64,000 nucleotides of DNA, taken from NCBI GenBank assembly GCA_947626855.1, contig CANQTT010000001.1:11695-75694 (forward strand), written 5' to 3'. Origin of the DNA: an uncultured Bacilli bacterium (GTDB lineage Bacteria; Bacillota_I; Bacilli_A; RF39; UBA660). Below, in pieces: positions 2,160 to 59,366 of this stretch (position 1 is its first letter; every line of letters starts with the position of its first letter). The notes beneath the pieces were generated by a model, which saw only the letters and a list, made by a program, of their open reading frames with translations, was not told the DNA's origin and did not search any database. The position numbers and the translations under genes are program-made.

Positions 2160-2160
2160 G

Positions 2161-2742: not shown

Positions 2743-2756
2743 TAGCTACCCATTTT

Positions 2757-3761: not shown

Positions 3762-3801
3762 AAAACCACCCACAGTATGAATTATTATACCATAACTCCC
3801 T

Positions 3802-4059
3802 TTAGTTTGTATCTAATTTCTCATACTTTTTACGCGTAGACTCTCCTCCACGGATATGTCTTACATTGGTATGATATTTTAAAATGTCTTCCACTTCTAA
3901 ATAAAGGCCTGGATTTAATGTTTCTAGTCTTTCATGTAAATCTTTATGAACTGTACTCTTCGATACTTTAAATACCCTAGAAATTGCTCGTATGGTATCT
4001 TTCGTTTGAATCATATACTTGGCTTCTAGTAGAACTCTTTGATTAATTTTTGAATTCAT
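3802..4059 (-). CDS. spoIIID: Stage III sporulation protein D (SpoIIID), mother-cell HTH transcription factor
   Basis: 85 aa. IRAISRVFKVSKSTVHKDLHERL helix-turn-helix is typical of SpoIIID. Conserved spoIIID-mbl neighbourhood. Confidence 0.8.
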   Translation of the reverse strand: MNSKINQRVLLEAKYMIQTKDTIRAISRVFKVSKSTVHKDLHERLETLNPGLYLEVEDILKYHTNVRHIRGGESTRKKYEKLDTN

Positions 4060-4098
4060 TTATCACCTCTACTACCAATATATGAAAAAAAAAGAGTA

Positions 4099-4719: not shown

Positions 4720-4764
4720 TTTCTCACCTCTATTAAAAGTGTGAGCATATTTCTTTTTTTTATA

Positions 4765-21527: not shown

Positions 21528-21768
21528 AAAAAAAATCACACCCTGAATAAGGGCGTGATGACGCGGTACCACCTTAATTTTTATATAAATTTCTTTATAT
21601 ACTCTTTCCCTTAACGCGGTTCTTCGTTTTATTCTTTCCCATAAAAAGCTCCAGACCCATTCGAAATAATTCTCATTTACTTGCTTTCACCTAACCAAGC
21701 TCTCTTTAAAATTGTCGTTATTCTTCTTTCCTTCAATGCCTTTGAATGGCTTCATTATAGCATATCTT
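21528..21768 (-). promoter_or_regulatory. T-box riboswitch leader (putative Met specifier) with terminator/antiterminator, upstream of dut-metG
   Basis: Minus strand carries the T-box sequence AATTAAGGTGGTACCGCG and a terminator hairpin ATCACGCCCT-TATTC-AGGGTGTGAT followed by T8. Stem I region has AGAGAG and AGUAAAUGAGAA (candidate AUG specifier). Confidence 0.7.
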
Positions 21769-22203
21769 TTAACATTCTTCAAGATATTTTTTTAAAAAGA
21801 AAGTGAGGAAAGAAAGCAGTTCTTGATATTTTTCATCTTTCGTACAAAACACCATTTTTCCTACTTCTTTGTTCTCTAAAAGAATAGGAGATTCTAAAAA
21901 ATCTTTCTCCTTTTTTTTCTCCTCTAATTTTTTTAAAGAGAGATGGGGAGGATAACTAATAATTTGCTTTTCTTCTAAAAGAAAGCCTTCGATATGATAC
22001 CGTTCATAAACGGTTGTTAACAATACTTCTCCTAAATGCTTTATTTCTTGAATACTAGAATATTTTGCAATTGCAATCGTATCTTCTTTGACAGTTAATT
22101 CTAATAGATCACCAGTATGAATATTTAAACTCTTTCTTACATCTTTTGGCAAAACTAACCTGCCTAAATCATCAATTCTTCGAACAATAGTAGTTTTTGA
22201 CAT
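21769..22203 (-). CDS. AbrB/SpoVT-family transcriptional regulator (swapped-hairpin N-domain plus C-terminal domain)
   Basis: N-terminal RRIDDLGRLVLPKDVRKSL matches the AbrB/MazE/SpoVT DNA-binding fold. In B. subtilis abrB flanks metS and spoVT flanks mfd. Confidence 0.65.
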   Translation of the reverse strand: MSKTTIVRRIDDLGRLVLPKDVRKSLNIHTGDLLELTVKEDTIAIAKYSSIQEIKHLGEVLLTTVYERYHIEGFLLEEKQIISYPPHLSLKKLEEKKKEKDFLESPILLENKEVGKMVFCTKDEKYQELLSFLTFFLKKYLEEC

Positions 22204-31188: not shown

Positions 31189-31383
31189 TCAATAAACATA
31201 TACCAATATTAGAACTAAAGCCAATAGGGCCGGAACACCTAAAATAGCGACAGAAGAAACCGTTATCACATTAATAGGAATCATTAAATTTAAAGGTTGT
31301 ACCAATAAATTATATCCATAAAGCAAAAAAGAACTAATAATGATTTTTCTAAGAATTTTTAATACTTTTTTCATACTTTTCAC
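31189..31383 (-). CDS. bofA: BofA-like small membrane protein (pro-sigma-K processing inhibitor family)
   Basis: 64 aa. C-terminal PINVITVSSVAILGVPALLALVL resembles B. subtilis BofA. Sits in the B. subtilis recR-yaaL-bofA position. Confidence 0.5.
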   Translation of the reverse strand: MKSMKKVLKILRKIIISSFLLYGYNLLVQPLNLMIPINVITVSSVAILGVPALLALVLILVYVY

Positions 31384-34806: not shown

Positions 34807-37428
34807 TTATGACTCACTCTCTTTATCAACAGTTTCAGTTATTAAATCTTCCTCTTGGGAAATATTTCCCTCTTCATTATTTCCCATATTAGTTTGGGAA
34901 ATATCTTCTTTTTTGAGAAGAGCAACTGTACTTACTTTTTGATTTTCTTTTAAATTAATTAATTTAACACCTTGAGCTACTCTACCTGTTGAACTAACTT
35001 GTTCTAATGGTAAACGAATGATCATTCCACTATCCGTAATAATCATTAAATCTTCGTTGCCTGTTACTAACTTGAAATCAACGATTGTACCATTCTTTTC
35101 GGTAATATTGAGTGCTTTAACACCTTTACTTCCACGATGAGTCATTCTATATTCTTCTATTTTCGTCTGTTTTCCATAACCATTTTCTGTAATAACGAGA
35201 ACAGATTCATTTTCCAAGGCTACTTCAATACCTACAGCAATACCATCGCCTACTTCGATACCTCGAACACCAGATGCGGTTCTTCCCATGATTCTTACTT
35301 CTGATTCTTTAAAACGAATCATTCGACCATTTGAACTTGCTATTAATATTTCATTTGTTCCATCGGTCTTCTTAACATCTAATAACTCATCATCCTCTTT
35401 TAAACTAATAGCGATTTTACCACTATTACGAATATTATCAAATTCACTAATATTGGTACGTTTAACTAATCCACTTCGAGTACAGAAGACTAAATACTTA
35501 TTTTTCTCTTCTCTTTCGATTTTCAACATCGATTTAACGACTTCTTCTTTTTCTAATGGTAGTAAATTGATAATTGGTAATCCTTTAGATTGTCTACTAA
35601 AGGCTGGTACCTCATATCCTTTCATACGATAAACTCTACCTTTATTCGTAAAGAATAACAAATAGTCATGGGTAGTTACAGAAACTAATTTTTCCACAAG
35701 GTCTTCTTCATTAGTTGTCATACCTTTAATACCTACTCCACCTCTATTTTGAGTCTTATAAGTATCACTAGTAATTCTCTTAATATATCCTTTATTGGTT
35801 AAAGTTACGATAATATCTTCTACTGGAATTAAAGATTCATCATCAATATAATCAATCGCAGTCATATCAATAGAAGTTCTTCTCTCATCAGAATACTTAT
35901 TCTTAATTTCTAACATTTCTTTCTTAATGATATCAAGAACTTTTTGTTCACTTGCTAAAATACTCTTTAATTCTTCAATCAATTTCAATAATTCATTTAA
36001 TTCTTCTTCTATTTTAGCACGCTCTAAACCAGTTAATCTCTTTAAACGCAACTCCAAAATACTATCAGCTTGAATTTGGCTTAAACCAAAACGACTCATT
36101 AAAGCATCTCTTGCTTCTTCATCCGTTTGAGATTCTCTAATAATCCGAATGACTTCATCAATATGATCTAAAGCAATCTTATAACCTTCCAAAATATGGA
36201 CACGATTTTCAGATTTTTTCAAATCAAATCTGGTTCTTCGAATAATTACTTCTTTTTGATGATCAATATACTTTGAAAGAATGGCTTTTAATGGTAAAGT
36301 TTTTGGAGTTAGACCATCTAACATTAAGAAAATAATTCCATAATTTGTTTGAAAAGCGGTGTGTTTATATAAATTGTTTAGAACAACTTGTGGATTTGCT
36401 TCTTTCTTAAGTGTGATGGTTATTTTTACCCCATCCTTCAAATCGGTGTGATAATCCGCAATTCCATCAATAATTTTATTATGAACAAGTTCAGCTACTT
36501 TATTTTTTAATTCCATGGTATTAATTCCATAAGGAACTTCTGTTACAACAATACAATTATGACCATTGATTTCTTCTATAGATGCTCTACTACGAATAGT
36601 AATTGTGCCACGACCTGTTTCATACGCTTGACGAATTCCAGAATTTCCTAAAATGATACCGCCTGTTGGAAAATCTGGTCCTTTAATATATTTCATCAAC
36701 TCTAATGTATCAATATCAGGATTATCAATATAGGCAATACATCCATCGATTACTTCTCCTAAATTGTGAGGAGGAATATTGGTTGCCATACCTACGGCAA
36801 TTCCCATTGTTCCATTTACTAATATGTTAGGAAATCTAGATGGTAAAACTTTTGGTTCTTTAACCGTTTCATCAAAGTTTGGATCAAAATCAACCGTATC
36901 CTTATTAATATCTCTCAATAATTCAAGGGAAATCTTGGATAATCTGGATTCTGTATAACGCATAGCTGCTGCTCCATCACCCTCGATATTACCAAAATTT
37001 CCATGTCCATCAATTAATAAATATCTTTGATTAAAATCTTGAGCCATACGAACCATGGCTTCATAAATGGAAGAATCTCCATGGGGATGATAATGTCCCA
37101 TTACATATCCAACCGTTGTTGCTGATTTTCGATGTGGTTTATCTGGAGTATATCCAGATTCATACATGGACCATAAAATTCTACGATGAACAGGTTTTAA
37201 TCCATCTCTTAAATCTGGTAAAGCACGAGAAGCAATAACACTCATAGAATATTCCAAAAAGGAAGTTTCTACCTCGTTAACGATGTTATTTTCAGCTAAT
37301 CGATCTCTTTCATGAAAATATCCACTAAAATGTGTATTATCTACTAAAGCAGAGTTCTCTTCCACTTCTTCATTTTCAAGATTTTCCTCCGTTGTTTGCT
37401 CTTCTTCTATATTTTTTTCTTCTTCCAT
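34807..37428 (-). CDS. gyrA: DNA gyrase subunit A
   Basis: Active-site region AAMRYTE (catalytic Tyr), QRDR-like segment, and C-terminal beta-pinwheel repeats. gyrB-gyrA adjacency. Confidence 0.95.
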
Positions 37429-37438
37429 ACTTCACCTC

Positions 37439-39358
37439 CTAAATATCTAGATTTTGAACATAACCAGCATTTTCTTCGATAAATTTTCGTCTTGGTTCTA
37501 CTTCATCGCCCATTAATTTTGCAAATACAGCATCGGCAGCCATACAATCTTCTACAGTAATCTTTCTTAAAATACGCTTTTCAATATCCATGGTTGTTTC
37601 ATTTAACTCCTCTGCGTCCATCTCGCCTAGACCTTTCATACGAGCAATTTCGGCCCTTGCACGGACATTTTCAGGAAGACTTTGTAAATATTTTTCTTTC
37701 TCTTCCTCATTTAAAACATACTTTCTAGTTTTTCCATGCATAATTCTAAATAAAGGAGGTTGAGCTGCATAAACATGTCCTTCTTCCACAATAGGTCTAA
37801 AGAAACGATAGAAAAGAGTAAGCAATAATACACGAATGTGAGAACCATCGACATCGGCATCGGTCATAATAATAATTTTATCGTATCTTAATTTTGAAAG
37901 ATTAAATTCTTCCCCTATTCCTGTTCCAAAAGCAGTGATAATGGTTCTAATCTCTTCATTTCCCAATGCTCGATCTAACCGATTTTTTTCCACATTCAAA
38001 ATTTTTCCTCGCAAAGGAAGAATAGCTTGCGTCATAGAGTCTCTACCTTTTTTAGCAGAACCTCCTGCGGAATCTCCCTCGACAATAAATATTTCTGATA
38101 CCTTTGGATCTTTACTTTTACAATCTGATAATTTTCCAAAGAAATTCGTCATCGCTAAATCACTTTTACGTGTGATTTCTCTTGCTTTCTTCGCCGCATT
38201 TCTAGCTCTACAAGCAAGCATTGATTTTTCAACAATTGCCCTAGCTTCATCTGGATTTTCAAGTAAAAATTTTTCAAAACCCTCAGAGAAAACATTATCC
38301 GCTAATTTTCTAACCTCTGAGTTTCCAAGTCTTCCTTTCGTTTGACCTTCAAATTGAGGATTTGGGTGCTTACAAGAAATAATCATAGTAAGACCTTCTT
38401 TAACATCATCACCCGTTAAAGATTCATCTTTCTCTTTCAACATTCCAGATTTTTTTGCATAGTTATTAATAACTCTTGTTAATGCTCTTCGAACTCCCTC
38501 TTCATGAGTACCACCATCATGGGTATTGATATTATTTACAAAGGAATAAATGTTATCATTATATCCGGTGTTATATTGCATTGCTACTTCAAAGAAAACG
38601 CCATCTTCTTCCCCTTCTAGATGAATAATATTTTCATGAATAGGTGTTTTTTCTTGATTAATAAATTTTACATATTCAGAAATACCACCTTCATAAATAA
38701 AGGTTTCTCCCGTTGTATCTTCTTCATTTCGATCATCCCGAAGAGTAATTCTTAAACCACGATTTAAGAATGCTAATTCGCGAATACGAACCATTAACGT
38801 ATTGTAATCATAGACATCCGTATCAAATATCTCAGGATCTGGCTTGAATGTCACAACAGTTCCAGTTCGGTTAGGATCACATTTATCAATTACGTGTAAT
38901 GGTTCTACCGTATGGCCTCCATTTTCAAAACGAATATAATGAACTTGTCCATTTTTATAGACTTTTACTTCTACCCATTTTGATAAGGCATTTACTACTG
39001 AAGCTCCTACACCATGAAGACCTCCAGATACCTTGTATCCGCCGCCTCCAAATTTACCACCAGCATGTAAAACTGTATAAACAGTCTCTACCGTTGATAT
39101 TTTTGTTTTAGGGTGGATATCAACAGGAATACCACGTCCATCGTCCTTTACCGTAATAGAATTTCCTTTATTAATAACAACCTCTATGTTATTACAATAC
39201 CCAGCAAGAGACTCATCAATCGCATTATCTACAATTTCCCATACTAAATGATGGAGACCTTTTACATCCGTTGTTCCAATATACATTCCTGGTCTTTTTC
39301 GTACAGCTTCCAATCCCTCTAAGACTTGGATATCGGAAGCATCATAATGTTCATTCAT
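37439..39358 (-). CDS. gyrB: DNA gyrase subunit B
   Basis: GHKL ATPase motifs (DNAIDE, GLHGVG), Toprim EGDSAGG, and [11 protein letters not shown]. Confidence 0.95.
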
Positions 39359-40481
39359 TTTCTTTCACCTCTTTGATTTTCATTAAATGTCCTGCTTCTA
39401 TTTTAAATAACTTAGATTTCTTAATAAATTTAGGATCTAAATTATTTAATTCTGTAGTAGTAATAATTGTTTGAATATCTTTACTAATATATTTCATTAA
39501 ATTATTTTTCTTATCATCCGATAATTCACTAAAAACATCATCCAATAATAAAATAGGTGTTCCCTCTTTATATTTTTTAAAAATAGGGATTTCCGCTAAT
39601 TTTAAAGCTAAAACAGCAACTCTTTGTTGCCCTTGAGAACCATACAATTTTAAATTCTTATCTGACAGTAAAAATTCTAAATCATCTTTATGAGGACCTA
39701 ACGTCGTCATAGATAACTTTTTATCATATTCTAACTTCTCTTGATATTGCTTTTGTAACTTTTCTTTTAAAGAAGGATCTTTCATGTCAGTAATCTCTAA
39801 ATTGGGAACATATTCAATATGAAACCCCTCTAATCCCATGATATCTTGATAGATTTGGGAACAAGTCTCATTAATTTTTTCAATATATTTGTAACGCATT
39901 TGATAGAGAATAATAGCTTTATCAATTAAATAGGAAGTTACGATATCAAAATAATTTTGATCAATAGATCCTCCCTTTGACCATTTTTTTAAATATTCAT
40001 TACGAATTCTTAACAATTTATTATAATCATTCATAACAATATAATAACTATTGTATAATTGGGATAATTCAACATTTAAGTATTTCCTTCTAAGCTGCGG
40101 AGATCCCTTTAATATTTCTAAATCATCGGGATAAAAAATGATTATATTCATATTTGATATATAATCACTTACTTTTTTAATAGGTGTATCATCAATTTTA
40201 TAATATTTATTATGATTATCGATTTGAATTTCCATTTTTTTATCTAAGAAGTTACCACCGACAATACCAGAAATACACAAGGCTTCTGATCCTTTCCGAA
40301 TTAAATTATTATCAATAAAAGCTCGATGAGACTTTGTTAAACCAAGCACATAAATACTTTCTAGTAAATTTGTTTTTCCTTGAGCATTATCCCCATAAAT
40401 GATATTAATTCCTTTATAGAAACGGGCCGATAATTTTTCATAATTACGAAAATTCCGTAATTCAATTTTTTTTAAAATCAT
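39351..40481 (-). CDS. recF: DNA replication and repair protein RecF
   Basis: Walker [13 protein letters not shown]-like signature and Walker B LLLDDV. Overlaps the gyrB start by 8 nt. Confidence 0.9.
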
Positions 40482-40603
40482 GTGAATACCTCTTTTTGTG
40501 CTTTAATGGCTCATTTTAGACTAAAAAAATAAAACTAATACTCCTATACACATAAAATATTATATCATAATTAAAAAGCATAAAAAAGAAAAAAATAGAT
40601 TTT

Positions 40604-41062
40604 TTATCTATTTTTTTCCAATTTTAACTCATATAATTTTGCCTTTAACATAACAGCTCGACAATATTGATTTTCAATAGAATAAAAAGATACTGGAACT
40701 TCTATTTTTTGATCATTTTGAAACTCAATGGTGGTTCCATAAAAATTAGCCTTATATCCTTTTATTTTATTAAGAGAAACCCATAAATTTTCACTATTTC
40801 GAACAGAACTAGTAGGAAAAAATATAAGATTTCTACTCTCCTCAATAATGATAGGAAATTTAGACTTAATTCCAGTTAAATATTTTGTTCCTTCACAACG
40901 ACCTCGGTAGCTACTTCCATAGAACTTACAGTTGTAATCAATAATTTTATGCACATTCTTGTTCACAACATATTCAACTTCTTCTTCATAGACTTTAGAA
41001 CAATTATCATCAATTGGTACGATTGCTAAAGTAGAAGAATTAATCTCATATTCCTCTAACAT
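40604..41062 (-). CDS. comK: ComK-family competence transcription factor homolog
   Basis: YEINSSTLAIVP, CKFYGSSYRGRCEGT, PIIIEESRNLIFFPT and EVPVSFYSIENQYCRAVMLKAKL align with B. subtilis ComK segments YEVNGATIAVLP, CRFFGSSYAGRKAGT, PIMVDPSNQIFLFPT and ELPISYNSFENQVYRTAWLRTKF. 152 aa, so it lacks the ComK C-terminal tail. Confidence 0.7.
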   Translation of the reverse strand: MLEEYEINSSTLAIVPIDDNCSKVYEEEVEYVVNKNVHKIIDYNCKFYGSSYRGRCEGTKYLTGIKSKFPIIIEESRNLIFFPTSSVRNSENLWVSLNKIKGYKANFYGTTIEFQNDQKIEVPVSFYSIENQYCRAVMLKAKLYELKLEKNR

Positions 41063-41165
41063 ACTACACCTCCACCTAATTCACAACGGAATAGCTCTCT
41101 TATACTCCTTCCACATATCGAAATTTGTTGAATTTTGTAGAAAAAGAACAAAAAAAAGACATATT

Positions 41166-42287
41166 TTAATATGTCCTAATAGGTACTATCAATTGAATTA
41201 ACTGATTGGTTTCCCCATCCGTAATGATGATAGGTCTAATTTCCCCATTGTATTTGATAGCAATTTCTTCACTATTAAATACTTTTACAGCATCCATCAT
41301 ATACTTTGAACTAAAAGCAATTTTGACATTTTCTTCAATTGGTTCTGACAAATCTACTTTTTCTTCAACGTTTCCAATCTCTGGAATATTAGAAGAAATA
41401 AGTAGATAATCCCCTTTGCTTTCTAGTTTTATGATATTTTTTTCTTCTTCATTCGTTAACAAAGAAGCTCGATCGATAGAGTTAAAGAAATTATTTAAAT
41501 TTACCCGAATCGTTGTTAAAAACTCCTCTGGAATTAATTTATTGGTATCTGGATAAGTACCATTAATTAATCTTGACATAATGATTAAACTACCAAAACT
41601 AAAAATAATTTTATTATTAAAGATATGTAACTCTAAGCTTTCATCATCACTATTTAATAATCTGACAACTTCCATTAAATTTTTAGCAGGCACAATAATG
41701 TTGATATCTTGATCTATTTTTTCGCCGAGTTCTATTTCTTTCCTAGCTAAACGATAAGAATCTGTTGCTGTACACTCAAACTTATTGCCTGTAATAATAA
41801 AGTTAATTCCCGTTAAAACAGGTCTAGATTCTTGAGTAGAGGTTGCAAATATTGTTTGATTAATCATGGTTTTAAAAGTTTGTTGATTTAAAATAATCGG
41901 ATTTTTACTGAATTCTAAATCTAGATTAGGAAATTCAGAGGCATTATTACAATTCAATTTAAAAGAAGAAGTATTGGTTGTTATTAATAATTGTGAGGAA
42001 ATGATTTCTTCTAAATTAATGGTTTCATTAGAAAGTTTTCTAATAATATCATAAATATATTTCCCAGAGACAACGATATCTCCTTTTTCTTCAATTTCCT
42101 CAATATCTTTGGCATCAATAAAAGTTTTAATAGCTATTTCATTATCCGTACTCATTAAATAAAGTCCTTCTGATTTTAAATCAAACTTTATACAATTGAG
42201 AATAGGAATTAAATTTTTAGAAGAAATTCCTTTAATAACGTAGTTTAAATGTTCCATTAATATTTTTTGTTTAATTTTTAATTTCAT
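41166..42287 (-). CDS. dnaN: DNA polymerase III beta sliding clamp
   Basis: Three-domain beta-clamp organisation with an MKLKIKQKIL start. dnaA-dnaN adjacency. Confidence 0.9.
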   Translation of the reverse strand: MKLKIKQKILMEHLNYVIKGISSKNLIPILNCIKFDLKSEGLYLMSTDNEIAIKTFIDAKDIEEIEEKGDIVVSGKYIYDIIRKLSNETINLEEIISSQLLITTNTSSFKLNCNNASEFPNLDLEFSKNPIILNQQTFKTMINQTIFATSTQESRPVLTGINFIITGNKFECTATDSYRLARKEIELGEKIDQDINIIVPAKNLMEVVRLLNSDDESLELHIFNNKIIFSFGSLIIMSRLINGTYPDTNKLIPEEFLTTIRVNLNNFFNSIDRASLLTNEEEKNIIKLESKGDYLLISSNIPEIGNVEEKVDLSEPIEENVKIAFSSKYMMDAVKVFNSEEIAIKYNGEIRPIIITDGETNQLIQLIVPIRTY

Positions 42288-42433
42288 AGTACTTGCTCTC
42301 CTTTATATTATTATTTTTATATATTATATTTATTATAGATGTGCATAGATGTGCATAACTTTGTTTTCCCCTTATAATAAAGGAAATAGTCTGTGTTGAT
42401 AATTATGAATTATGAACAAATTGTGCACATAGA
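42288..42433. other. oriC: oriC downstream element: DnaA-box variants and an AT-rich unwinding region between dnaA and dnaN
   Basis: Tandem GATGTGCATA GATGTGCATAA and TTGTGCACA (1-2 mismatches to TTATCCACA/TGTGGATAA), next to the AT-rich run TTATTATTTTTATATATTATATTTATTATA. Confidence 0.6.
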
Positions 42434-43786
42434 TTAATGAATTTTGTTGATAATTTTTTGAATTTCATTATTTAATGCTTCATCTTTTAAAATTTCATTT
42501 TTTATTTTTTCAACAGCGTGCATAACAGTGGTGTGATTTTTGCCGCCAAATTCAATTCCTATTTTAGTAAGGTTCTCTTCCAAATAAATTCTGCAGATAT
42601 ACATAGCAATCATCCTTGGAATAGCAATATTATTGGTTTTCTTTTTACTTTTTAAATCTTCAGCACTAATATTGTAATTTTCACTGACTAACTGGATAAC
42701 TTGATCGATTTTATTCTTTGCCACAAAAGAAATTACAAAGAAATCTTTTAATGCTTCCACCGCTAAATCAAGAGTAATATCTGATCCGTTCATAATGGTT
42801 GCATAGGCATAGACTCTCGTAACAGCTCCTTCTAATTTTCGAATATCCCCTACGCAGTTACTAGCAATATATTCTTTTACTTCTTCTGGGAAGGTATTGT
42901 CTTGTCCATGGAGCTCTATTTTCTTATTAATAATATTCATTCGAAGTTCAAATTCTGGTGGTAAAATATCAATTTGAAGTCCCCAATTAAATCTTGTCTT
43001 TAGTCTTTCCTCTAATTTTTTGATATCTTCTGGGGATCTATCAGAGGATATAATGATTTGTTTATTATTATTATATAATTCATTAAAGGTATTGAAGAAT
43101 TCTTGTTGAGCAGAAGTAGCTCCCACTAAATTGTGAATATCATCAATAATTAAAACATCCACATCGCGATATTTATTTTTAAATTGTTTAATAGATTCCA
43201 TATTGTTTTCATTCGCACTTTTTCTACAAATGTCAACAAAATCAGAAACAAAAGTATCGCAAGGAATATATAATACTTTCATTTTTTTATTATTTTCTAC
43301 AATAAAATTTCCAATGGCATGCATAAGATGTGTTTTTCCTAATCCACTAGATCCATAGATAAATAACGGATTATACATTTTTCCTGGTTGTTCTGCCACT
43401 GCAAGTGCGGAAGTAGCGGCAAATTTATTACTGTTACCAATTACGAAGTTATCGAATCGATAGCGATTATCAAGGTTACTTTCAAAATTACTAGCAGGAA
43501 TTCCAATTTCATCCGTATTTAAAACAATCTTATTTTCTAATTCTTCTTCTGTATAGAATTCAAAATTAAAGTTCGTACCAGTAACTTCTGTAAATTTCTC
43601 AATAATGTCGTCAATATAATTTTCTTTTAAATTCTTTTTATGGATATGGGAAGGTACTAAAACTTTAGCGATCCCCTCTTCTAATCCAATTAATTTTGTT
43701 TCCGAAAACCAAGTTTCATAAGAAATTTCTGATAAGACTTCCTTAATTTTTAACAGAAATAAATTCCACATATTCTCTAAATCCAC
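42434..43786 (-). CDS. dnaA: Chromosomal replication initiator DnaA
   Basis: AAA+ Walker A GSSGLGKTHL, box VII, and C-terminal DNA-binding domain with HTTVMHA. Confidence 0.95.
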   Translation of the reverse strand: MDLENMWNLFLLKIKEVLSEISYETWFSETKLIGLEEGIAKVLVPSHIHKKNLKENYIDDIIEKFTEVTGTNFNFEFYTEEELENKIVLNTDEIGIPASNFESNLDNRYRFDNFVIGNSNKFAATSALAVAEQPGKMYNPLFIYGSSGLGKTHLMHAIGNFIVENNKKMKVLYIPCDTFVSDFVDICRKSANENNMESIKQFKNKYRDVDVLIIDDIHNLVGATSAQQEFFNTFNELYNNNKQIIISSDRSPEDIKKLEERLKTRFNWGLQIDILPPEFELRMNIINKKIELHGQDNTFPEEVKEYIASNCVGDIRKLEGAVTRVYAYATIMNGSDITLDLAVEALKDFFVISFVAKNKIDQVIQLVSENYNISAEDLKSKKKTNNIAIPRMIAMYICRIYLEENLTKIGIEFGGKNHTTVMHAVEKIKNEILKDEALNNEIQKIINKIH

Positions 43787-44200
43787 ATAATCACCCCCAC
43801 TTTAAAGATTTTCTACCTATATTCTACACTATTTGCCTTAAAAAAAAAAGAAAATGTGGATAATTTTTAGGAATCTTTTTATCCACACAACTTTGCTTTG
43901 ATTTTTGAATTCAAAATGGAGTTATGCACATTTTTGTGTCTTTTTTATTCACAAACAATATTCTTTGTGAATTTTTTGTGCACAAATATGTGCATAAATG
44001 TGTATAACTAGGTATTTTATCGTAATTTTAATAGTAAAAAAATGTGCATAACTGAAAAATTATTCACAATCCTTTCGACAAATCTATTTTATGAACATTC
44101 TCTGAATGTGCATGATTTTTTCTCCCTTTCTCTAAAATTGTTTGACAAATAGGAAAAAAATCTATATAATTGATAAAGCAAAGAGGGATTTTATACAATT
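43787..44200. other. oriC: oriC upstream element: cluster of at least 10 DnaA boxes
   Basis: Perfect boxes TGTGGATAA (43855-43863) and TTATCCACA (43879-43887). Variants TTATGCACA, TTATTCACA (x2), TTGTGCACA, TGTGCATAA (x2), TGTGTATAA and TGTGCATGA. Confidence 0.8.
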
Positions 44201-44212
44201 GGAGGTGGAAAT

Positions 44213-44335
44213 ATGAAAAGAACTTATCAACCTAATAATCATAGAAAAAGTAAAAAAATGGGTTTTTTCGCTCGAATGGAAACAAATATTATCAATAATA
44301 GAAGAAAAAAAGGGCGTAAAGTATTATCTCATTAA
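44213..44335 (+). CDS. rpmH: 50S ribosomal protein L34
   Basis: [22 protein letters not shown]...GRKVLSH, 40 aa. GGAGGTGG RBS 6 nt upstream. Below the ORF-track size cutoff. Confidence 0.9.
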
Positions 44336-44337
44336 AT

Positions 44338-44361
44338 CCACTGATCGTCGGTGGTTTTTTT
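44338..44361 (+). terminator. Hairpin plus T-tract between rpmH and rnpA (terminator/attenuator)
   Basis: CCACTGA-TCG-TCGGTGG stem-loop followed by TTTTTTT. Confidence 0.45.
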
Positions 44362-44406
44362 ATTATAACATGGATATCCATATATAATATAGAAAGGGGC
44401 TTATAG

Positions 44407-44736
44407 ATGAAGAAAAAAAATATTTTAAAAAATAATTATGATTTTCAAAGAATTATTCATACCCAAAAGCCCTATCGATATAAGGATTATATTATTTATG
44501 TAGAAAGAACGAATAGTCTTCGTTATCATTTTGGAATTTCTGTTAGTAAAAAATTAGGAAATGCGGTTGTGAGAAATCGCTTAAAAAGGCAGATACGTTC
44601 TATTATTCACGAAAAAGACTATCAAAATAACTTTAATTGTATTATAATATTAGGCAAGGGAATTATAGGTAAAAATTATCAAGAGATGAAAATGAATTTA
44701 CTAGATGCCCTTGGAAAATTAAACTTATACCGTTAG
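44407..44736 (+). CDS. rnpA: Ribonuclease P protein component
   Basis: 109 aa, basic. RNR-like motif VVRNRLKRQIR. rpmH-rnpA adjacency. Confidence 0.85.
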   Translation: MKKKNILKNNYDFQRIIHTQKPYRYKDYIIYVERTNSLRYHFGISVSKKLGNAVVRNRLKRQIRSIIHEKDYQNNFNCIIILGKGIIGKNYQEMKMNLLDALGKLNLYR

Positions 44737-48872: not shown

Positions 48873-49622
48873 ATGGAAAATCTTGAAAATCAAGTAGCTA
48901 ATCAAACACAACCAAAATTAGAGCCTGTTGATTCAGAGACAAAAAAACAAGCAATGAAATTATTTAATAGCTTGCTTTTAGATATTGATAAAAATTTTGA
49001 AGAATTAGCGTGGTGGATTCAAATTATTGATGATACCCAAAAAGAAGTTGAAAGCGAAATGAATGCTTATGAAACTGCTAATCCATTGATGGATGTTGAT
49101 TCTGCAGAATATAAAAAATATCTTCAATTCCAAGCTGATAGGAGTTTTCTTAGTCGTATAAAAGATATGATTTATGATAGAGTTTCTGAGAAAGTAACGG
49201 AAGAACAATATGATCAGTTTTTGCAATTAGTAGAGACACGTCCTGATATGTCTCATAATCAAGAAGTGCCGCAACATTTAGAATCAGAACTTTCAGCGGA
49301 GATGGAACTTCCAGATGTAGAGGTAAGTAGTAATCAAATAGAAGTTCCAGAAGTACATAGTGATTCAGTAGTAAGAACTCCACTTACCGATACTAATGCC
49401 CCTGCTACAGCACAAATTTCAGAATCAAAATTTCAAGATGAGGAATTGTCAGCGTTGTTCAAGCAAGGAATTGTGCACGAAGGCTCAGGTTACAGGGATA
49501 AAGATGGCATCCTTTGGATTAGTGAGGAAGAGTATCTAAATTTTTTAAGGGAACAGAATGATTCTTTCGAAAATGTTGAACTAGATGAATATGGAAATGG
49601 TTCTACAGGTAAAAGAATTTAG
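48873..49622 (+). CDS. Acidic hypothetical protein (249 aa) inserted between mnmE and mnmG
   Basis: ORF with its own spacing and an upstream GAGGGAAG RBS. No recognisable domain. Very acidic. Confidence 0.4.
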   Translation: MENLENQVANQTQPKLEPVDSETKKQAMKLFNSLLLDIDKNFEELAWWIQIIDDTQKEVESEMNAYETANPLMDVDSAEYKKYLQFQADRSFLSRIKDMIYDRVSEKVTEEQYDQFLQLVETRPDMSHNQEVPQHLESELSAEMELPDVEVSSNQIEVPEVHSDSVVRTPLTDTNAPATAQISESKFQDEELSALFKQGIVHEGSGYRDKDGILWISEEEYLNFLREQNDSFENVELDEYGNGSTGKRI

Positions 49623-52400: not shown

Positions 52401-53975
52401 ATGGATGAGACAAGAGCTAAAGTTGTAGATTTAGACTTAAATGATATCCTACCTAACCGCTTTCAACCTCGTATTAAATTTAATGAAGATGCTATTATTG
52501 AGCTATCGGAATCTATCAAGGAACATGGTGTTATTCAGCCAATTATTGTAAGACCAATTGGTGATAAATACGAGATTATTGCTGGTGAGCGAAGATATAA
52601 GGCAAGTATTTTAGCTGGAAGAGATACCATTCCAGCGATTATTTCTAGTTTTAATGATAAAGATAGTGCAGAGGTAGCCTTAATTGAAAATGTACAACGG
52701 AGAGATTTAACACCTATTGAAGAAGCTGTATCTTATAAAAAAATACTAGATATGAATTATTTAACGCAAGAACAATTAGCTGTTAAGTTAGGAAAAAGTC
52801 AGTCAGCTATTGCCAATAAGATTCGCCTTTTAAATTTATGTGATGAGGTTCAAGAAGCCTTATTAGAAGAAAAAATTTCGGAAAGACATGCTAGATCCTT
52901 ATTAAAATTAAAAGAAACAGAAAAACAAAAAAGTATGTTAAAAAGAATTATTGAAGAACGTTTAACTGTAAGAAAGACAGAGGAGGAAATAGAAAAAATG
53001 AATACCTTTATAACAAATCCAATTGATGATGTTACCACGAATAATGATAATCCTACTATGAATAGTCAAAATCCTAGTGGACAAACAGAATCAAAACCTT
53101 TAGATATGCAATCTCTATTGATGAGTGAAACCCAGAAACAAGCAGCTGCTGTAGATGCAGCAATGGCTCAACCGGTTGTTCAACCACAACCTTCTGTAAT
53201 GTCAGAGCCAGTTTCCGTATCACAACCATCCGTGAATCCAACTCCAGTGGAGACTACACAATCCCCTCTTCCTGCTGTTGATTTAGTTTCTTCTGGTATG
53301 CCGTCTACTCCAATTGTGGAGACTCCAACAATAGCTTCTCCTTCTATGATTGCTCCAGATTCTCCATCAACAACACCAATGCCTATGTTCACAGTTCCAC
53401 AGATTGATCCTCAAAATTCTCAACCAAGTACAGTAGCAGAAGAAAAGCCTTTCAATATGGCGGATTTGTTGGCAACTCCTGCTCAAAGAAGTACAACAGA
53501 GACTTCTTCTACTCCTTTTGTAGCTCCTACTTCTGTAGGAAGTACGCAAACTATATCAACCCCTGCTGCTCCAGCACCTCAGTCTTCTTCTTTTGGAGCA
53601 CAAACCATTCCAGCTACTCCTATTTTGGAACAAACTCTTCCAACATCCTTTATGCCTGACCCAGTAAGAGCGGAAGATAATAATTCTGAAGGAGATACAG
53701 TAGTAGCTATTTCTAGTACACCATCAACACCTAATGAATCTAGAAGTGAGGAAAAAGTTGATATTCAACCAATTATTATAACGGATTATAATAAGCAGTA
53801 TGATCCAGTATTGCCAGCAAGTGCACAACCTGTTGAAAAGGTTGATTTTAAGCAAATTATTAATTTGATAAGAGAATTAAATAATACCATTGAGAAATGT
53901 GGATATACGATTGAGACTGAGGAATACGATTTGGAGAAAGAGTATCAGGTTGTTTTTAAGATTAATAAAGAATAA
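52401..53975 (+). CDS. noc: ParB/Noc-family DNA-binding protein (Noc-like), with a long Pro/Ser/Thr/Gln-rich extension and a small C-terminal domain
   Basis: ParB N-domain ILPNRFQPR and GERRYKA. HTH LTQEQLAVKLGKSQSAIANKIRLL. IPAII, EEKISERHARSLLKLK and LTVRKTEEEIEKM resemble B. subtilis Noc (IPAII, EKKITERHARALIPLK, LNVKQTEDRVVKM) more than Spo0J. Gene position after rsmG matches noc. About 320 aa of low-complexity P/S/T/Q sequence follow. Confidence 0.7.
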   Translation: MDETRAKVVDLDLNDILPNRFQPRIKFNEDAIIELSESIKEHGVIQPIIVRPIGDKYEIIAGERRYKASILAGRDTIPAIISSFNDKDSAEVALIENVQRRDLTPIEEAVSYKKILDMNYLTQEQLAVKLGKSQSAIANKIRLLNLCDEVQEALLEEKISERHARSLLKLKETEKQKSMLKRIIEERLTVRKTEEEIEKMNTFITNPIDDVTTNNDNPTMNSQNPSGQTESKPLDMQSLLMSETQKQAAAVDAAMAQPVVQPQPSVMSEPVSVSQPSVNPTPVETTQSPLPAVDLVSSGMPSTPIVETPTIASPSMIAPDSPSTTPMPMFTVPQIDPQNSQPSTVAEEKPFNMADLLATPAQRSTTETSSTPFVAPTSVGSTQTISTPAAPAPQSSSFGAQTIPATPILEQTLPTSFMPDPVRAEDNNSEGDTVVAISSTPSTPNESRSEEKVDIQPIIITDYNKQYDPVLPASAQPVEKVDFKQIINLIRELNNTIEKCGYTIETEEYDLEKEYQVVFKINKE

Positions 53976-55081: not shown

Positions 55082-55366
55082 TTATTTTAAATTTCTATTT
55101 TTTTCATATGTAAAATTAGTTGATTTTATGAAACTAGAATTCGCTTTGTCTTTATTAGAATTTCTATCTAACGTATTTTCAGAATATGGTTTTACAAAGA
55201 AAGCTCTTTTGATTTCATTAATCTCTTCTGCCCGAAATTTCACTAAATCTCCCACATTTACGGAATTATCAATATCACTATCCAAAAACAGATAGCTATC
55301 TTCTGGTGTGACGATTGTACCACTAATCCCATTATATTCTTTTACTTTTCCAATACTAAATGACAT
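55082..55366 (-). CDS. Degenerate cold-shock-domain (OB-fold) like small protein, translationally coupled to the upstream 1336-aa ORF
   Basis: GKVKEYNGISGTIVTPEDSYLFLDSDI...VGDLVKF parallels the CspB pattern GKVKWFNSEKGFGFIEVEG..DVFVHFSAI...EGQAVSF, but the RNP1/RNP2 aromatics are replaced. Its start overlaps the stop of the upstream gene by 11 nt. Confidence 0.45.
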   Translation of the reverse strand: MSFSIGKVKEYNGISGTIVTPEDSYLFLDSDIDNSVNVGDLVKFRAEEINEIKRAFFVKPYSENTLDRNSNKDKANSSFIKSTNFTYEKNRNLK

Positions 55367-58300
55367 AATTTGTATTCACTCCTTTTTCTTGTACATAGAC
55401 TTGAACTAATTTTCTAGCTTCCTCTAATTCTCTTTTAGCCTCTGGATCTGTTGTAATTATTTTTTCATGGATTACTCCTATTGCATCCACATAAAGATAC
55501 CAATCATGATTTGCAAATCCATATCTTACTTCCTTTTCATCCAGAATTGGAAATTCTAAATATTCATAGTTTTCACCAGCCATCAATCTTTGAACAGAAT
55601 CAATTCGTCTTATATAAGATACTATTTCTTTCATTGAATGAACCTCTACAACCTTATCTCGAGCTGGTAAATAAGTAGGAAGATTTCGCTTATCAAAATT
55701 GATTGGAACTAATGCATTATCATCTCTAGAAGTTGCAAGAACAATTGCATATCTGCCAACATCACAATAAGAAAGAGTTAATCCTTCTCGGACATTAGAG
55801 ATACCTAAGTTTTGCGTTGGTAAGCCGTCTGCAGCATATTTATCATGCAAAACAACATTATCGATAGGCATCCATCCATCCCGCTCGTAATCCTCCTGAC
55901 TCCTTTCAATCATGAGTTGAGCAATTCGTTTACAAGCTTCTACAATATCTTTATCTGAGTATAAATAAGGATTACAGGATTTTCTAAGTTCATTTAAGAA
56001 AACAGTATTTCCATTTCGAAAACCACTTACCCTTGAAATATATTCTCCTGTCTCTGGATCTTGAAACCGAATATGGAACCCATTTTTATCTTCTAAACAA
56101 AATCTAAAAAGTCCTTCCCCAAATCCCCCAATTCGCATACAAGCTCCTGTTCTCTCTCCATGCGTAAGATTACATGGGTTAGTAAAATTTCCAACAATAA
56201 CTTGTAATTTCTTTGTCTTTGTTACATCAAGTGTTTGATTAAAGGTTGGAACCGTTACTTCCATTCTTTCATAATTCCTTCTTGTCCATGTAACAGCCTC
56301 TCTTAATCTTATATCTGGATTCATTCTAGAACTATTTTCTTGAGGATCAGCCTTAATAATTCTTGCATCTTCACTTCCTAATATTAAAGAGTAGACATTA
56401 GATGTCGCCGCATAAATCTCTGCTTGCTGAATGATATTAGTAAGACTAAAAGAAACATCATTAGAACCGTTTTGCAATCTTTTCCTTTCAGCACTATAAA
56501 TTTCTGAATAGTAGGAAATAAAAGCGGCAAGATTGTATATATCAGTTTCAATACGAACTGGTGGTTGAGCCATAAAATTTATTAGAACATCTGGAATCGC
56601 TAATGATTTGCTTAAACTTTTTTTCAAACTTTCATACAAAAGCTTTGCTTCTTTATCATTTTTATCAAAAGATAAAATCCTTTCCAAATGTTTCAAATTT
56701 ATTCCTCTTAATATTCTAAAAAAATTAATAGAAGATTCTGGAACATCATATTCCCATTTTACATCATGCATTTGAGAATAATATTGTTGTCTTTCTTCTT
56801 CTGACATTTGCGATATTTTATTTTTCAAAAAACTACCAATAATTTTTTGATGTTTTTGCATGATAAGATTTCTCTCTAAATCATCTGTTCTTCTACGAGT
56901 AACAAAATAATCGATGCAATCCATAGCCAAATCCAAACTAAGTCCTTGACTCATTAATTCTTGTTCTAACTCTTCTTGATAAGTCTGCATTTCTATTAGA
57001 AATTTAGGTAATTTACTTCTAGCATCCATACTATCGATATGACTAGATAAAGACAAATCGGATGCCATTTGTTCCATGCCATGAACTTCTCGATAATTTT
57101 CACGTTCTACCCTTATATAATAGTCCATTATAAAATGTAGCATATCCAAATAGAATTCTCTATCTTCTGTATTAGCTTTTATCTTGCTCGTGATCATTCG
57201 CAATAATTGAAAAGGATTGGAATATTCTCTTGCAATTTCTGCATAAGCACCGTTTTTTTCTTCCATAAATTTTTTATAAAATTTACTATCTAAAAGAAAA
57301 ATTTCTGGTCCCCCAAGCTTTTTAAACTCTTTATTCAATTCTTCATATTGTGCCTTTAAACTTTTTAAATGTTCTGATAAAGATTCATTATATGGTTCAA
57401 GCTGAGCTTGTTCGGATAGTGTCTTTATCTGTTCCCGTAGTGACTCCATTTGATTCGATAGAACAATAACAGAATCAAAAGATTGGTCAATGGAGAGGAT
57501 TAAATTGTGAAAAGAATTAACAATTTCTGGATGTTGTCTTGGAAAACCATATTGTATGACTGAATCATAAGCATTTCGTAATTGATCAATCGTCATTTTT
57601 CGTTGAGAAAATAAATCTAATAAGCGATTGAATTGATTATTATCATACTTAAGAATAGCGGCAAGATTCTCATCTTCTAAATAATGAATAATTCTTAAAC
57701 CAAATCGTTCTTTCAAAGCATCTAGATGAGCAGCATTATACCCTCTTGTTTCTACAAAATATTCTTTTAATATTTTGTATACTTCTTCAGAGCAAACAAA
57801 AGAATGATTATCATCTGAATAAATGACTTCAAATAGTTGATTCCTACTAATTGGAAAAGAAAGAAGTGTTTTCAGAATAATTGGTTTTTTCCAAATAGAT
57901 TTTCCTGTTTTAAGACATTCAGAAATACATTCAAGATAGGTATAGTTTTGTTTAATAACTTCCACAAGTTGTTTTTGTGATTCTTCACTTAATTGTTCAA
58001 ACATATCTTGTGAAGAAAGACTACATAATCTAAAAAAGAGATCATACTTTTTTTTATTTATTAGTTTTTCTGAAAATAATGGATCTATTTTTAATATCAG
58101 TTCTATAATTTTTTCTTGGAATTCATCATTTCGAATTTCTATGACATGATTTAAAAATAATTCACTGTCAAAATTAAAGCTAATTTGACTAATGTCTAAG
58201 ATAGAATTTAAATTGCTAAAAAGGAAATTATTCAAATAATCGGGGCAAGCTTTCATTATGTAATATGAATTTCCATTCAAAATTTCTCTAAAAACTAAGT

Positions 58301-59366
58301 TGATAACTTTTGTTCTAGTTTGCATGGGCACGTCCCAAAACAAAATACTATCGCTGCTGCCACTTGTAACAAAAGCTTCCAAAAAGGTATCGTCTTGTAA
58401 TAAATCATAAGCATTATCTGGAAAAATTCGAAATGCTTTACCGTCTTTCATTTCTGAAAAAATAGTATTATAATCTTCACTATTTTTCTCGATACTGATA
58501 TCATCACTCATTATGTTCAAAGCTAAATCCAAGCGTCCTACTCTTTTGAAATGTTCAATGATTTGAGTTTGTTGCTCTTTCGTTAAAATATGGCAAAAAG
58601 CATTAATCAAAATATCTCCGAAAGTAGTTTCATTCAATATTCGATTTACCAAATAGGACACATATTGTGGATCAATATCAGATTGCTCATCAGCTATCAT
58701 TAAAAGAGTTTGAGTGGGCAAGCGATTAGCAGTGCCGTCATCGATGAGTGCGGCAAGCTTTTTTTTGCGATAATGGTTAAAAAGCAAACTATTAATACAA
58801 TTAGAATGATATTGATGAAAAGGAAAGTTATCTAAAATAAAATCAATATCCGCATCCTTTGACAAATGACAATCCAAGGTAAAAATTTCAAATTTTCCTT
58901 CTTTTAACAATCTTTTAATCAAGTTACTTGATAACCAAATTTTTTCATTAGTTTTTGAATTCCTAATAAGTTTTTGATAAGCTTCTTCCATTAAGGATTG
59001 GTAGATTTCTAGTGGAAAAAGAGATTTTATTTCCCCTTCAAAATTTTCACCAAAATCAAAACAATTATTTATGTATTCCCTAGCATATAAAATACCTATC
59101 TCTAAATCAATGAATTGGCTATTTTCATCAAAAAAAAGAGAATTAAAATTTATATCATAAGTATAAATTATTTTTTTTAGTTCTTCCCATAATTGGTTCC
59201 AGTTCACTTTTTTTTCTATCGCTAAATGTTTAAAAAATGTCAATGCAGCTTCATCATTTTTTAATAGATACAATTCGTTGGGGGTTAAAGAAAAATCCCC
59301 TCTTTGCATTTTTTCTTTTAAATTTTGGACATTTTCTTCATATGTTTCTATGATTTCTTTGTTCAC
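55356..59366 (-). CDS. Large cytoplasmic hypothetical protein (1336 aa) with no recognisable domain
   Basis: Continuous ORF with a GTG start behind GGTGG. No signal peptide or TM. Central coiled-coil-like segment. C-terminal about 330 aa are Gly/Asp-richer and look globular, with Cys (TGACMRIGG) and later His/Asp residues. Confidence 0.6.
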   Translation of the reverse strand: MNKEIIETYEENVQNLKEKMQRGDFSLTPNELYLLKNDEAALTFFKHLAIEKKVNWNQLWEELKKIIYTYDINFNSLFFDENSQFIDLEIGILYAREYINNCFDFGENFEGEIKSLFPLEIYQSLMEEAYQKLIRNSKTNEKIWLSSNLIKRLLKEGKFEIFTLDCHLSKDADIDFILDNFPFHQYHSNCINSLLFNHYRKKKLAALIDDGTANRLPTQTLLMIADEQSDIDPQYVSYLVNRILNETTFGDILINAFCHILTKEQQTQIIEHFKRVGRLDLALNIMSDDISIEKNSEDYNTIFSEMKDGKAFRIFPDNAYDLLQDDTFLEAFVTSGSSDSILFWDVPMQTRTKVINLVFREILNGNSYYIMKACPDYLNNFLFSNLNSILDISQISFNFDSELFLNHVIEIRNDEFQEKIIELILKIDPLFSEKLINKKKYDLFFRLCSLSSQDMFEQLSEESQKQLVEVIKQNYTYLECISECLKTGKSIWKKPIILKTLLSFPISRNQLFEVIYSDDNHSFVCSEEVYKILKEYFVETRGYNAAHLDALKERFGLRIIHYLEDENLAAILKYDNNQFNRLLDLFSQRKMTIDQLRNAYDSVIQYGFPRQHPEIVNSFHNLILSIDQSFDSVIVLSNQMESLREQIKTLSEQAQLEPYNESLSEHLKSLKAQYEELNKEFKKLGGPEIFLLDSKFYKKFMEEKNGAYAEIAREYSNPFQLLRMITSKIKANTEDREFYLDMLHFIMDYYIRVERENYREVHGMEQMASDLSLSSHIDSMDARSKLPKFLIEMQTYQEELEQELMSQGLSLDLAMDCIDYFVTRRRTDDLERNLIMQKHQKIIGSFLKNKISQMSEEERQQYYSQMHDVKWEYDVPESSINFFRILRGINLKHLERILSFDKNDKEAKLLYESLKKSLSKSLAIPDVLINFMAQPPVRIETDIYNLAAFISYYSEIYSAERKRLQNGSNDVSFSLTNIIQQAEIYAATSNVYSLILGSEDARIIKADPQENSSRMNPDIRLREAVTWTRRNYERMEVTVPTFNQTLDVTKTKKLQVIVGNFTNPCNLTHGERTGACMRIGGFGEGLFRFCLEDKNGFHIRFQDPETGEYISRVSGFRNGNTVFLNELRKSCNPYLYSDKDIVEACKRIAQLMIERSQEDYERDGWMPIDNVVLHDKYAADGLPTQNLGISNVREGLTLSYCDVGRYAIVLATSRDDNALVPINFDKRNLPTYLPARDKVVEVHSMKEIVSYIRRIDSVQRLMAGENYEYLEFPILDEKEVRYGFANHDWYLYVDAIGVIHEKIITTDPEAKRELEEARKLVQVYVQEKGVNTNYVI

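Follow-up and report, generated by a model that had tools for sequence, protein, structure and literature searches.

A gene of the ComK family lies between dnaN and recF in the gene cluster at the replication origin (oriC) of an uncultured Bacilli bacterium. It was found in a 64-kb stretch of contig CANQTT010000001.1 (64,000 nt, G+C content 31%), which was analysed as a whole and is referred to as the window. The gene, denoted comK(ori), occupies positions 40604..41062 of the minus strand, starts with ATG and encodes a 152-aa protein that consists of the ComK core domain only. It is under strong purifying selection, and its arrangement is an ancient trait, found throughout a deep clade of uncultured Bacilli from gut and rumen. 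The reading we favour, and hold to be reasonably probable as a whole, is that comK(ori) is a short-form ComK regulator gene, functional and inherited vertically, that is gated by Spo0A, insulated from its neighbours and fixed next to oriC and recF. To our knowledge, nearly all work on ComK has been done in Bacillus, Staphylococcus and Listeria. As a gene, comK(ori) does not lack an annotation, since public records of metagenome-assembled genomes (MAGs) already name the product 'competence protein ComK' (e.g. MCI7554553.1, NCBI pipeline). Its place is another matter: literature searches returned no description of a ComK gene in the dnaN–recF gap, which bears out the earlier note on this DNA in its view that the arrangement was previously undescribed, and searches for ComK in RF39, Tenericutes or Erysipelotrichia yielded nothing relevant.

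comK(ori) encodes a short form of ComK

The Pfam ComK profile (PF06338) matches the 152-aa protein with 140.9 bits (curated cutoff 22.3; E = 3.6e-41), and the alignment pairs protein residues 3–143 with profile positions 2–147 of 152. Since the profile is covered almost end to end, the similarity is global and not confined to low-complexity segments. The earlier note had proposed a ComK-family gene between dnaN and recF and had suggested a search with this profile as a check; the match is strong and falls on exactly the open reading frame (ORF) given above. The four ComK blocks that it had picked out (YEIN..TLAIVP, CKFYGSSYRGRCEGT, PIIIEESRNLIFFPT and EVPVSFYSIENQYCRAVMLKAK) are all present, at invariant alignment columns. 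The protein is 39% identical to the 192-aa ComK of Cytobacillus, with 26 invariant columns that include G49, S50, G54, R55, F81–T84, N131 and Q132, and its AlphaFold2 (AF2) model has a confident fold. PF06338 is also carried by all homologues among the matches listed, 120 in each of two homologue searches. No NCBIfam model matches the protein, and a sequence search of the PDB gave no solved structure related to it by sequence. We regard membership of the ComK family as virtually certain.

comK(ori) thus belongs to the same PF06338 family as B. subtilis ComK and keeps the core motifs YEIN, GSSYxGR, PIIIEE..FFPT and NQxxRA. B. subtilis ComK, the master regulator of the K-state and of the late competence genes, is subject to post-translational control by MecA/ClpCP and ComS. 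Relative to that protein (192 aa), comK(ori) is missing about 8 residues at the N-terminus and about 30 at the C-terminus, the latter including the region reported to be required for transcription activation. The earlier note had put the loss at about 40 C-terminal residues; the total of 40 is right, but alignment with Cytobacillus ComK divides it between the two ends and places the C-terminus about 30 residues short, with the activation-type tail absent. In B. subtilis, ComK without its C-terminal 25 aa has lost activation of comGA but still binds DNA (PMC3128618). Because activation by B. subtilis ComK is reported to need the missing C-terminal residues, comK(ori) may act unlike it; the clade thus offers a natural experiment, a ComK without an activation tail. 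The closest precedent is ComK2 of B. cereus (BC5250), which is likewise C-terminally truncated, with the core kept and the activation tail gone. ComK2 lacks only 22 C-terminal residues, coexists with a full-length ComK1 and is encoded outside the dnaN–recF gap; it acts as a negative modulator that lowers comGA expression, and it alters the expression of more than 300 unrelated genes (PMC3128618).

The short form is a substantial part of the ComK family. A profile search over 1.84 billion cluster representatives (50%-identity clusters) gave 1813 ComK clusters at E ≤ 1e-3, and the best-scoring of these are almost all 146–157 aa long. A large share of ComK-family diversity therefore consists of core-only proteins of about 150 aa in uncultured gut and rumen Bacilli. 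One relative (protein P0243, locus L117, 1151-1729) is called as a 192-aa ComK in the public record. That call reads through three TGA codons, as under code 4; under code 11 the protein is about 158 aa long, and what follows is nonsense. We regard the 192-aa form as a gene-calling artefact, an example of code-4 miscalling on Bacilli contigs of 23% G+C.

The dnaN–comK–recF arrangement is conserved

On the minus strand of the window the gene order is dnaA (42434-43786), dnaN (41166..42287; DNA polymerase III beta clamp, Pfam DNA_pol3_beta domains 1–3), comK, recF (39351..40481; SMC_N/AAA_15), gyrB (37439-39358) and gyrA (34807-37428). comK shares one orientation with its upstream neighbour dnaN and its downstream neighbour recF, from which it is separated by gaps of 103 nt and 122 nt, respectively, and its start lies about 1.2 kb from the dnaA–dnaN part of the origin. 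B. subtilis comK, in contrast, is remote from the origin.

The earlier note had given the dnaN–recF gap as the usual place of yaaA/remB. For remB (yaaB) this does not hold, as that gene lies between recF and gyrB. For yaaA (rlbA) it does: the S. aureus order is dnaA, dnaN, yaaA, recF, gyrB, and yaaA is the usual occupant of the gap (PMC10821479). Neither gene is at its usual place here, since comK fills the dnaN–recF gap and recF shares 8 nt with gyrB; among all the loci, none showed a yaaA-like ORF in the dnaN–recF gap. comK(ori) resembles the S4-domain gene yaaA/rlbA of Bacillus and Staphylococcus in being a small gene in the same slot and orientation (PMC10821479), but the two have no homology and comK(ori) has a predicted promoter and terminator of its own.

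A scan of genomes, one per species, gave 31 loci. Three belong to Cytobacillus, where ComK is of the canonical 192-aa form and its gene is not at the origin; the remaining 28 all show the order dnaA-dnaN-comK-recF-gyrB-gyrA. Profile-guided scanning of metagenome contigs added 80 loci, in 79 of which dnaN and/or recF adjoin comK in the same order. The final tally comprises 27 genome loci (one of the 28 was omitted) and 79 metagenome loci, and the dnaN–comK–recF context is kept in all 106 (90 with both flanks, 16 cut by a contig end). The description of the gene as 'inserted', in the sense of a local oddity, therefore had to be dropped. A 1.03-Mb contig (ERZ28751742:contig_12937) shows the identical gene order, and the synteny reaches lineages whose DnaA and RecF are only 41–47% and 35–39% identical to those of the window. 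The sole locus of 107 without synteny, L070, is a 2.2-kb contig with no dnaN or recF nearby, on which a 299-aa ORF (139-1038) begins with the first 104 or so residues of an origin-type ComK and continues into unrelated sequence; a chimera made in assembly or a rearranged copy is the probable explanation.

Every source record of the relatives is a MAG of an uncultured gut or rumen bacterium; the labels are Bacilli, Tenericutes, Mycoplasmatota, Acholeplasmatales, Erysipelotrichaceae and Candidatus Pelethosoma. The mollicute labels among these (Tenericutes, Mycoplasmatota, Acholeplasmatales) are misleading. The window encodes FemAB (59441-60775) and MreB, which indicate a walled cell.

ComK identity tracks the identity of DnaN, RecF, DnaA and GyrB (Spearman rho 0.73–0.84; for DnaN, RecF and DnaA 0.77–0.84), which argues for vertical co-inheritance. 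Pairwise comparison with close relatives gave ratios of non-synonymous to synonymous substitution rates (dN/dS) of 0.06–0.22, and the length stays within 148–163 aa over more than 100 lineages. The earlier note had considered that the gene might be a decayed paralog, and a protein 40 aa shorter than canonical ComK could be taken as such a remnant or a pseudogene. Conservation refutes this: besides the selection and constant length just described, the Pfam model is covered almost fully, the AF2 fold is confident, and the Shine-Dalgarno sequence and promoter are conserved. We assign decay a negligible probability.

The two sides of comK differ. The comK–recF junction is uninterrupted in every locus, whereas the dnaN–comK gap tolerates insertions. 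These are a 207-aa ORF in L011 (5239-5862), two membrane proteins of 151 and 155 aa in L017 (4814-5859) and a 61-aa ORF in L117 (870-1055).

Predicted transcription unit of comK(ori)

Sequence signals suggest that comK is very probably an independent transcription unit. An intrinsic-terminator-like hairpin (GGACATAT-TAAA-ATATGTC) followed by a T8 run lies at the end of dnaN (41150..41176, minus strand), with the dnaN stop codon in its loop; RNAfold gives −8.9 kcal/mol for a 47-nt stretch that contains it. A second such hairpin (GGAAAAAAATAGAT-AAAAA-ATCTATTTTTTTCT; −14.0 kcal/mol) with a T-run lies at the end of comK (40582..40619, minus strand). Part of it had been noticed earlier as a palindrome (AAAAATAGAT-TTTTT-ATCTATTTTT, 40591-40615) following the gene; it is indeed of terminator type, but it overlaps the comK stop codon and does not strictly come after it. 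A hairpin with a T-run follows dnaN in 81 of 84 non-redundant loci and comK in 94 of 97, by a loose criterion that also picks 24% of random 90-nt control windows. The stems vary in sequence between loci while the stem-loop and T-run are kept. A stricter terminator scanner does not list the hairpins that flank comK, whose stems are AT-rich.

Downstream of the dnaN terminator, a putative −10 hexamer, TATAAG (41099..41104, minus strand), lies within a conserved GAGTATAAGAG. The element reads GTATAAG in the clade of the window and TGTGnTAT(G/T)AT at the same position in divergent clades. The comK 5′ leader (41067..41093, minus strand) holds a small hairpin (ATTCcgttgtGAAT) and then a Shine-Dalgarno sequence, GGTGGAGGTG; the hairpin arms differ by subclade (ATTCAA/TTGAAT versus TGTTC/GAACA), consistent with a structure that is kept. 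recF has its own predicted promoter, a perfect extended −10 element TATGATATAAT (TRTGnTATAAT; 40559..40569, minus strand) present in essentially every locus. With terminators after dnaN and comK and separate promoters for comK and recF, comK would form an insulated monocistronic unit.

Alternatively, comK might be co-transcribed with dnaA-dnaN by read-through and thus be constitutive with the replication genes, as its single orientation and short gaps would allow; AT-rich terminators can moreover be leaky. The hairpin and T8 run at the dnaN stop codon, with their counterparts in the relatives, speak against this, as does the conserved promoter-like module downstream of them. In L011, L017 and L117, where ORFs split dnaN from comK, the module of −10 element and upstream boxes (see below) stays attached to comK. 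We consider co-transcription very improbable. Read-through from dnaN, which had been raised as a way to express the gene, thus appears not to be its designed or main mode of expression, and some leakage is possible.

Tandem Spo0A-type boxes upstream of comK(ori)

The strongest regulatory signal at the locus is a set of tandem Spo0A-type boxes. In the window there are three, TTCTACA-aaa-TTCAACA-aat-TTCGATA (41116..41142, minus strand; sites at 41116, 41126 and 41136), in 10-bp phase and each differing at one base from TTCGACA, which is the 0A box TGTCGAA in reverse complement. The proximal box ends 11–12 nt upstream of the −10 hexamer. There is no −35 hexamer at 17 ± 1 nt from this −10, and the boxes take its place. 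Throughout the family, two or three direct TTCGACA repeats with a 10-bp period are found between the dnaN terminator and the conserved −10; one divergent group has perfect repeats (TTCGACAtatTTCGACAaaaTTCGACA). The order dnaN, terminator, 0A boxes, comK, terminator, recF can serve as a synteny marker of the clade.

The boxes were counted in the 120 nt upstream of comK in 98 non-redundant loci, with the other 662 kb of these loci as background. Exact TTCGACA occurs 101 times in coding-strand orientation and 4 times in reverse, a density of 8.6 per kb versus 0.027 per kb per strand elsewhere (∼ 300-fold enrichment). Between consecutive boxes the spacing is 10 bp in 54 cases and 20 bp in 38; the one exception is 28 bp. 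In 89 of the 98 loci, versus 2 of 1960 shuffles, the best phased triplet is mismatched at no more than 6 of its 21 positions. TGTCGAA is the 7-bp core recognized by Bacillus and Clostridioides Spo0A, which contacts G2, C4 and G5 (PMC3485338); the information maxima of the repeats, C3, G4 and C6, are the complements of the contacted G5, C4 and G2. In two loci, L105 and L115 (e.g. L115 about 1700-1750), TTCGGTA and TTCGAGA stand in place of TTCGACA and the 10-bp period is kept, which could be co-evolved binding specificity or site decay.

At 21–22 nt from the −10, the TCGACA of the middle box is placed as in the Spo0A-activated promoters of spoIIE and spoIIG. In these sigma-A promoters of B. subtilis, too, tandem 0A boxes overlap or replace the −35, weak boxes are used, and a TCGACA −35-like element is found about 21–22 bp from the −10. 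The promoter of comK(ori) differs from them in having three boxes with a strict 10-bp period, the proximal one close to the −10, and the putative Spo0A target is here a ComK homologue and not a sigma-factor operon.

Spo0A~P binds the B. subtilis comK promoter directly, at activating and repressing sites, and so gates competence (PMC3297582); a link from Spo0A to comK thus has a direct precedent. Whereas B. subtilis comK has scattered degenerate sites and K-boxes, comK(ori) has three phased consensus-type boxes in the place of a −35. What is new here, as read from the promoter sequences, is the strength, simplicity and conservation of the putative link, and in our judgement the promoter of comK(ori) is one of the clearest non-sporulation Spo0A-box promoters in sequence data. 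The window encodes SpoIID (4765-5682), SpoIIID (3802-4059; Pfam E = 4e-28), BofA (31189-31383; E = 7e-11) and CotJB with a CotJC-type Mn-catalase (1794-2742), which places the host in an endospore-forming lineage; an M23 peptidase (SpoIIQ-like?) and MreB/Mbl adjoin the endospore genes within 1794-5682. For the uncultured orders RF39 and ML615J-28 and two RFN20 families, spo0A has been reported and sporulation predicted (PMC10868615). We consider it likely that comK(ori) is under the control of Spo0A, and thereby propose a concrete Spo0A-to-ComK wiring at the origin of organisms that are not yet cultured.

The TTCGACA repeats might instead be the operator of another factor, most plausibly of comK(ori) itself: direct repeats are what LytTR-type domains bind, ComK of B. 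subtilis regulates its own gene (PMC3128618), and the boxes occur at this promoter only, within about 660 kb of locus sequence. The known ComK site, however, is based on A/T tracts (AAAA-N5-TTTT) and is unlike TTCGACA, whereas the motif matches the 0A consensus at 7 of 7 positions and has its information maxima exactly at the Spo0A contacts. Tandem 0A boxes such as those of abrB have a 10-bp head-to-tail period. The repeats show this same period, and the host lineage carries sporulation genes. We therefore judge autoregulation or another operator improbable and retain Spo0A as the probable ligand of the boxes.

Other candidate signals were discarded. Some copies of the repeat read TTATCGACA and might be taken for DnaA boxes, yet the oriC boxes of this genome are TTATNCACA, and the repeat core CGACA carries a G at the position of a C in DnaA boxes. 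Readings that involve CodY, sigma-H or another alternative sigma factor were judged by eye to be at odds with the direct-repeat 10-bp phasing or the spacing. The palindromes in the 5′ untranslated region are not LexA (Cheo) boxes, as their half-sites are GTTC-N5-GAAC and not GAAC-N4-GTTC. GTGTATARGAG occurs in the window only at comK and recF and might be thought a shared operator; with 2 copies found and 1.6 expected, it is better explained as the comK −10 region and the recF 5′ hairpin.

Possible function of comK(ori)

We propose that comK(ori) is a short-form DNA-binding regulator, expressed as its own monocistronic unit beside the origin. Spo0A~P would bind the boxes and gate comK, most likely by activation, at the transition to stationary phase or sporulation. 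The protein would bind DNA through a putative LytTR-like beta-fold core and establish a ComK-type (K-state) programme, whether of DNA uptake, recombination or growth arrest; lacking the tail, it may have another mode of action, such as that of an anti-repressor or a repressor. The site beside oriC and directly upstream of recF would give comK the highest and earliest-doubling dosage, which might couple its level to replication status. Such dosage coupling, suggested by analogy, is in our view rather unlikely. Control of DNA-uptake genes, suggested by family membership, has somewhat less than an even chance; the tie between DNA-uptake control and replication status that the earlier note had envisaged is possible.

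The analogy is with the pneumococcal comCDE and comAB loci, which lie near oriC, so that replication stress raises their copy number and triggers competence; a related position effect is that of spo0F/kinA on Spo0A~P pulsing (PMC5034851). In both S. pneumoniae and the present clade a competence-type regulator locus lies beside the origin. comK(ori) is positioned more tightly than comCDE, inside the dnaA-dnaN-recF-gyrB cluster, and ComE is a LytTR-domain response regulator unrelated to it in sequence. The locus is a candidate for a second case in which competence-type regulation is hard-wired to the replication origin. In a stronger version, comK(ori) would be a Spo0A-triggered checkpoint regulator whose position is part of the mechanism: its dosage would double first at each initiation and rise under replication stress, and dosage together with Spo0A~P would decide entry into a K-state-like programme, or the protein would act directly on the origin, recF or gyrase. 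If true, this would be a convergent counterpart of the oriC-proximal comCDE and of the spo0F/kinA position effect, with the checkpoint built into the dnaA-dnaN-recF-gyrB core itself. We think this version unlikely and prefer the simpler model of a Spo0A-gated short-form regulator.

Several points weigh against that model. None of the late competence genes (comG, comE, comF, comC, ssbB, dprA) is found in the 64-kb window, and within 39000-44500, which covers comK, recF and oriC, there is no canonical K-box with up to one mismatch, defined as two AAAA-N5-TTTT boxes spaced 8, 18 or 31 bp apart; degenerate sites are possible. (The whole window has 1 such match versus 0.85 expected.) The competence role is accordingly read from the family annotation alone. 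In B. cereus, ComK2 is also C-terminally short and does not activate comGA (PMC3128618). The mismatch in each of the three boxes of the window hits a contact position, so that these are weak boxes; a box between the −35 and −10 positions could repress instead of activate, and the box positions relative to +1 (about −28, −38 and −48) are estimates from a predicted start. A search confined to the window did not find spo0A. Finally, the gene-dosage idea is an analogy, the effect having been demonstrated experimentally in pneumococcus.

Some of these points lend themselves to a different reading, in which a ComK-fold protein was repurposed and no longer controls DNA uptake. It would be a Spo0A-induced negative or architectural DNA-binding factor at the origin, for example a ComK2-like repressor or a factor for replication initiation, for recF-gyrBA expression or for the chromosome state at the onset of sporulation. 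The loss of the region for comGA activation, the lowering of comGA by the short B. cereus ComK2 (PMC3128618), the lack of K-boxes near comK and of com genes in the window, the Spo0A-type boxes in the promoter and the unbroken comK–recF adjacency next to a dnaN–comK gap that takes insertions all fit such a protein. On the other side, no positive evidence points to any alternative target; oriC has no conserved 0A boxes or other shared motif, and the recF promoter looks constitutive, with its perfect extended −10. Where ComK-family proteins have been studied, they are tied to competence genes. We consider repurposing unlikely, though the most serious of the alternatives. That a ComK gene beside the origin carries three Spo0A-type boxes in its promoter points to a hard-wired connection of a ComK-type cell state with both sporulation signalling and the origin.

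Origin region and recF leader

The origin of the window has two intergenic parts. The rpmH–dnaA part (43787..44212, minus strand) holds a cluster of 8 TTATNCACA DnaA boxes, and the dnaA–dnaN part (42288..42433, minus strand) holds the DnaA boxes TTATGCACA and TTATCAACA and an AT-rich stretch. Boxes of the TTATNCACA form are grouped at 43855-44068 and within the dnaA–dnaN spacer. The genes rpmH-rnpA-yidC-jag are divergent, on the far side of oriC. No conserved 0A boxes were found in oriC.

The recF leader was compared between the window (40538-40569, minus strand) and the comK–recF intergenic regions of all loci (e.g. L001 6459-6580). The recF mRNA leader opens with a hairpin with a Shine-Dalgarno-like loop directly after the TRTGnTATAAT promoter. 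In the window this is a conserved element, GTGTATAGGAGTAT (40538..40551, minus strand), with the small hairpin GUAU-AGGA-GUAY. Across clades the stems change and the pairing is kept (AGUAC-UUAG-GUACU, UAGUAC-GGAA-GUACUA, GUAU-AGGU-AUAC). The element has no Rfam match and resembles the STAB-SD or 5′-hairpin elements that stabilise the 5′ end of an mRNA. In several clades (L010, L011, L014, L015, L019, L020 and the L075–L094 group; e.g. L011 about 6540-6570) an upstream ORF of 7–8 codons (MKR../MKK..) with a strong Shine-Dalgarno sequence (GGGGG) overlaps the recF start out of frame, and recF itself has no Shine-Dalgarno sequence. This suggests that recF may be translationally coupled to a leader peptide in these clades. 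The clade of the window has instead a plain AAAGAGG Shine-Dalgarno sequence and a non-conserved ATGAGCCATTAA mini-ORF before recF.

Other genes of the window

Three further ORFs of the window resemble little in Pfam. The 1336-aa ORF at 55356-59366 (minus strand) has no Pfam match at E ≤ 1e-5 and the 249-aa ORF at 48873-49622 none at E ≤ 0.01, and the 394-aa ORF at 62463-63647 has marginal ATP-grasp matches only (E about 0.006). The ParB/Spo0J homologue (52401-53975, plus strand) is unusually long at 524 aa; its ParB_N and HTH_ParB domains fall within the first ∼ 200 residues, and the C-terminal ∼ 320 residues have no domain assignment. At 21546-22203 (minus strand) a 144-aa protein whose N-terminal domain is of AbrB/MazE type (SpoVT/AbrB-like) is encoded upstream of a T-box leader (21546-21745), which precedes the dUTPase-metG genes. 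No 0A boxes were seen upstream of the AbrB-like gene. The AbrB-like/metG neighbourhood is the same as that of abrB-metS in B. subtilis.

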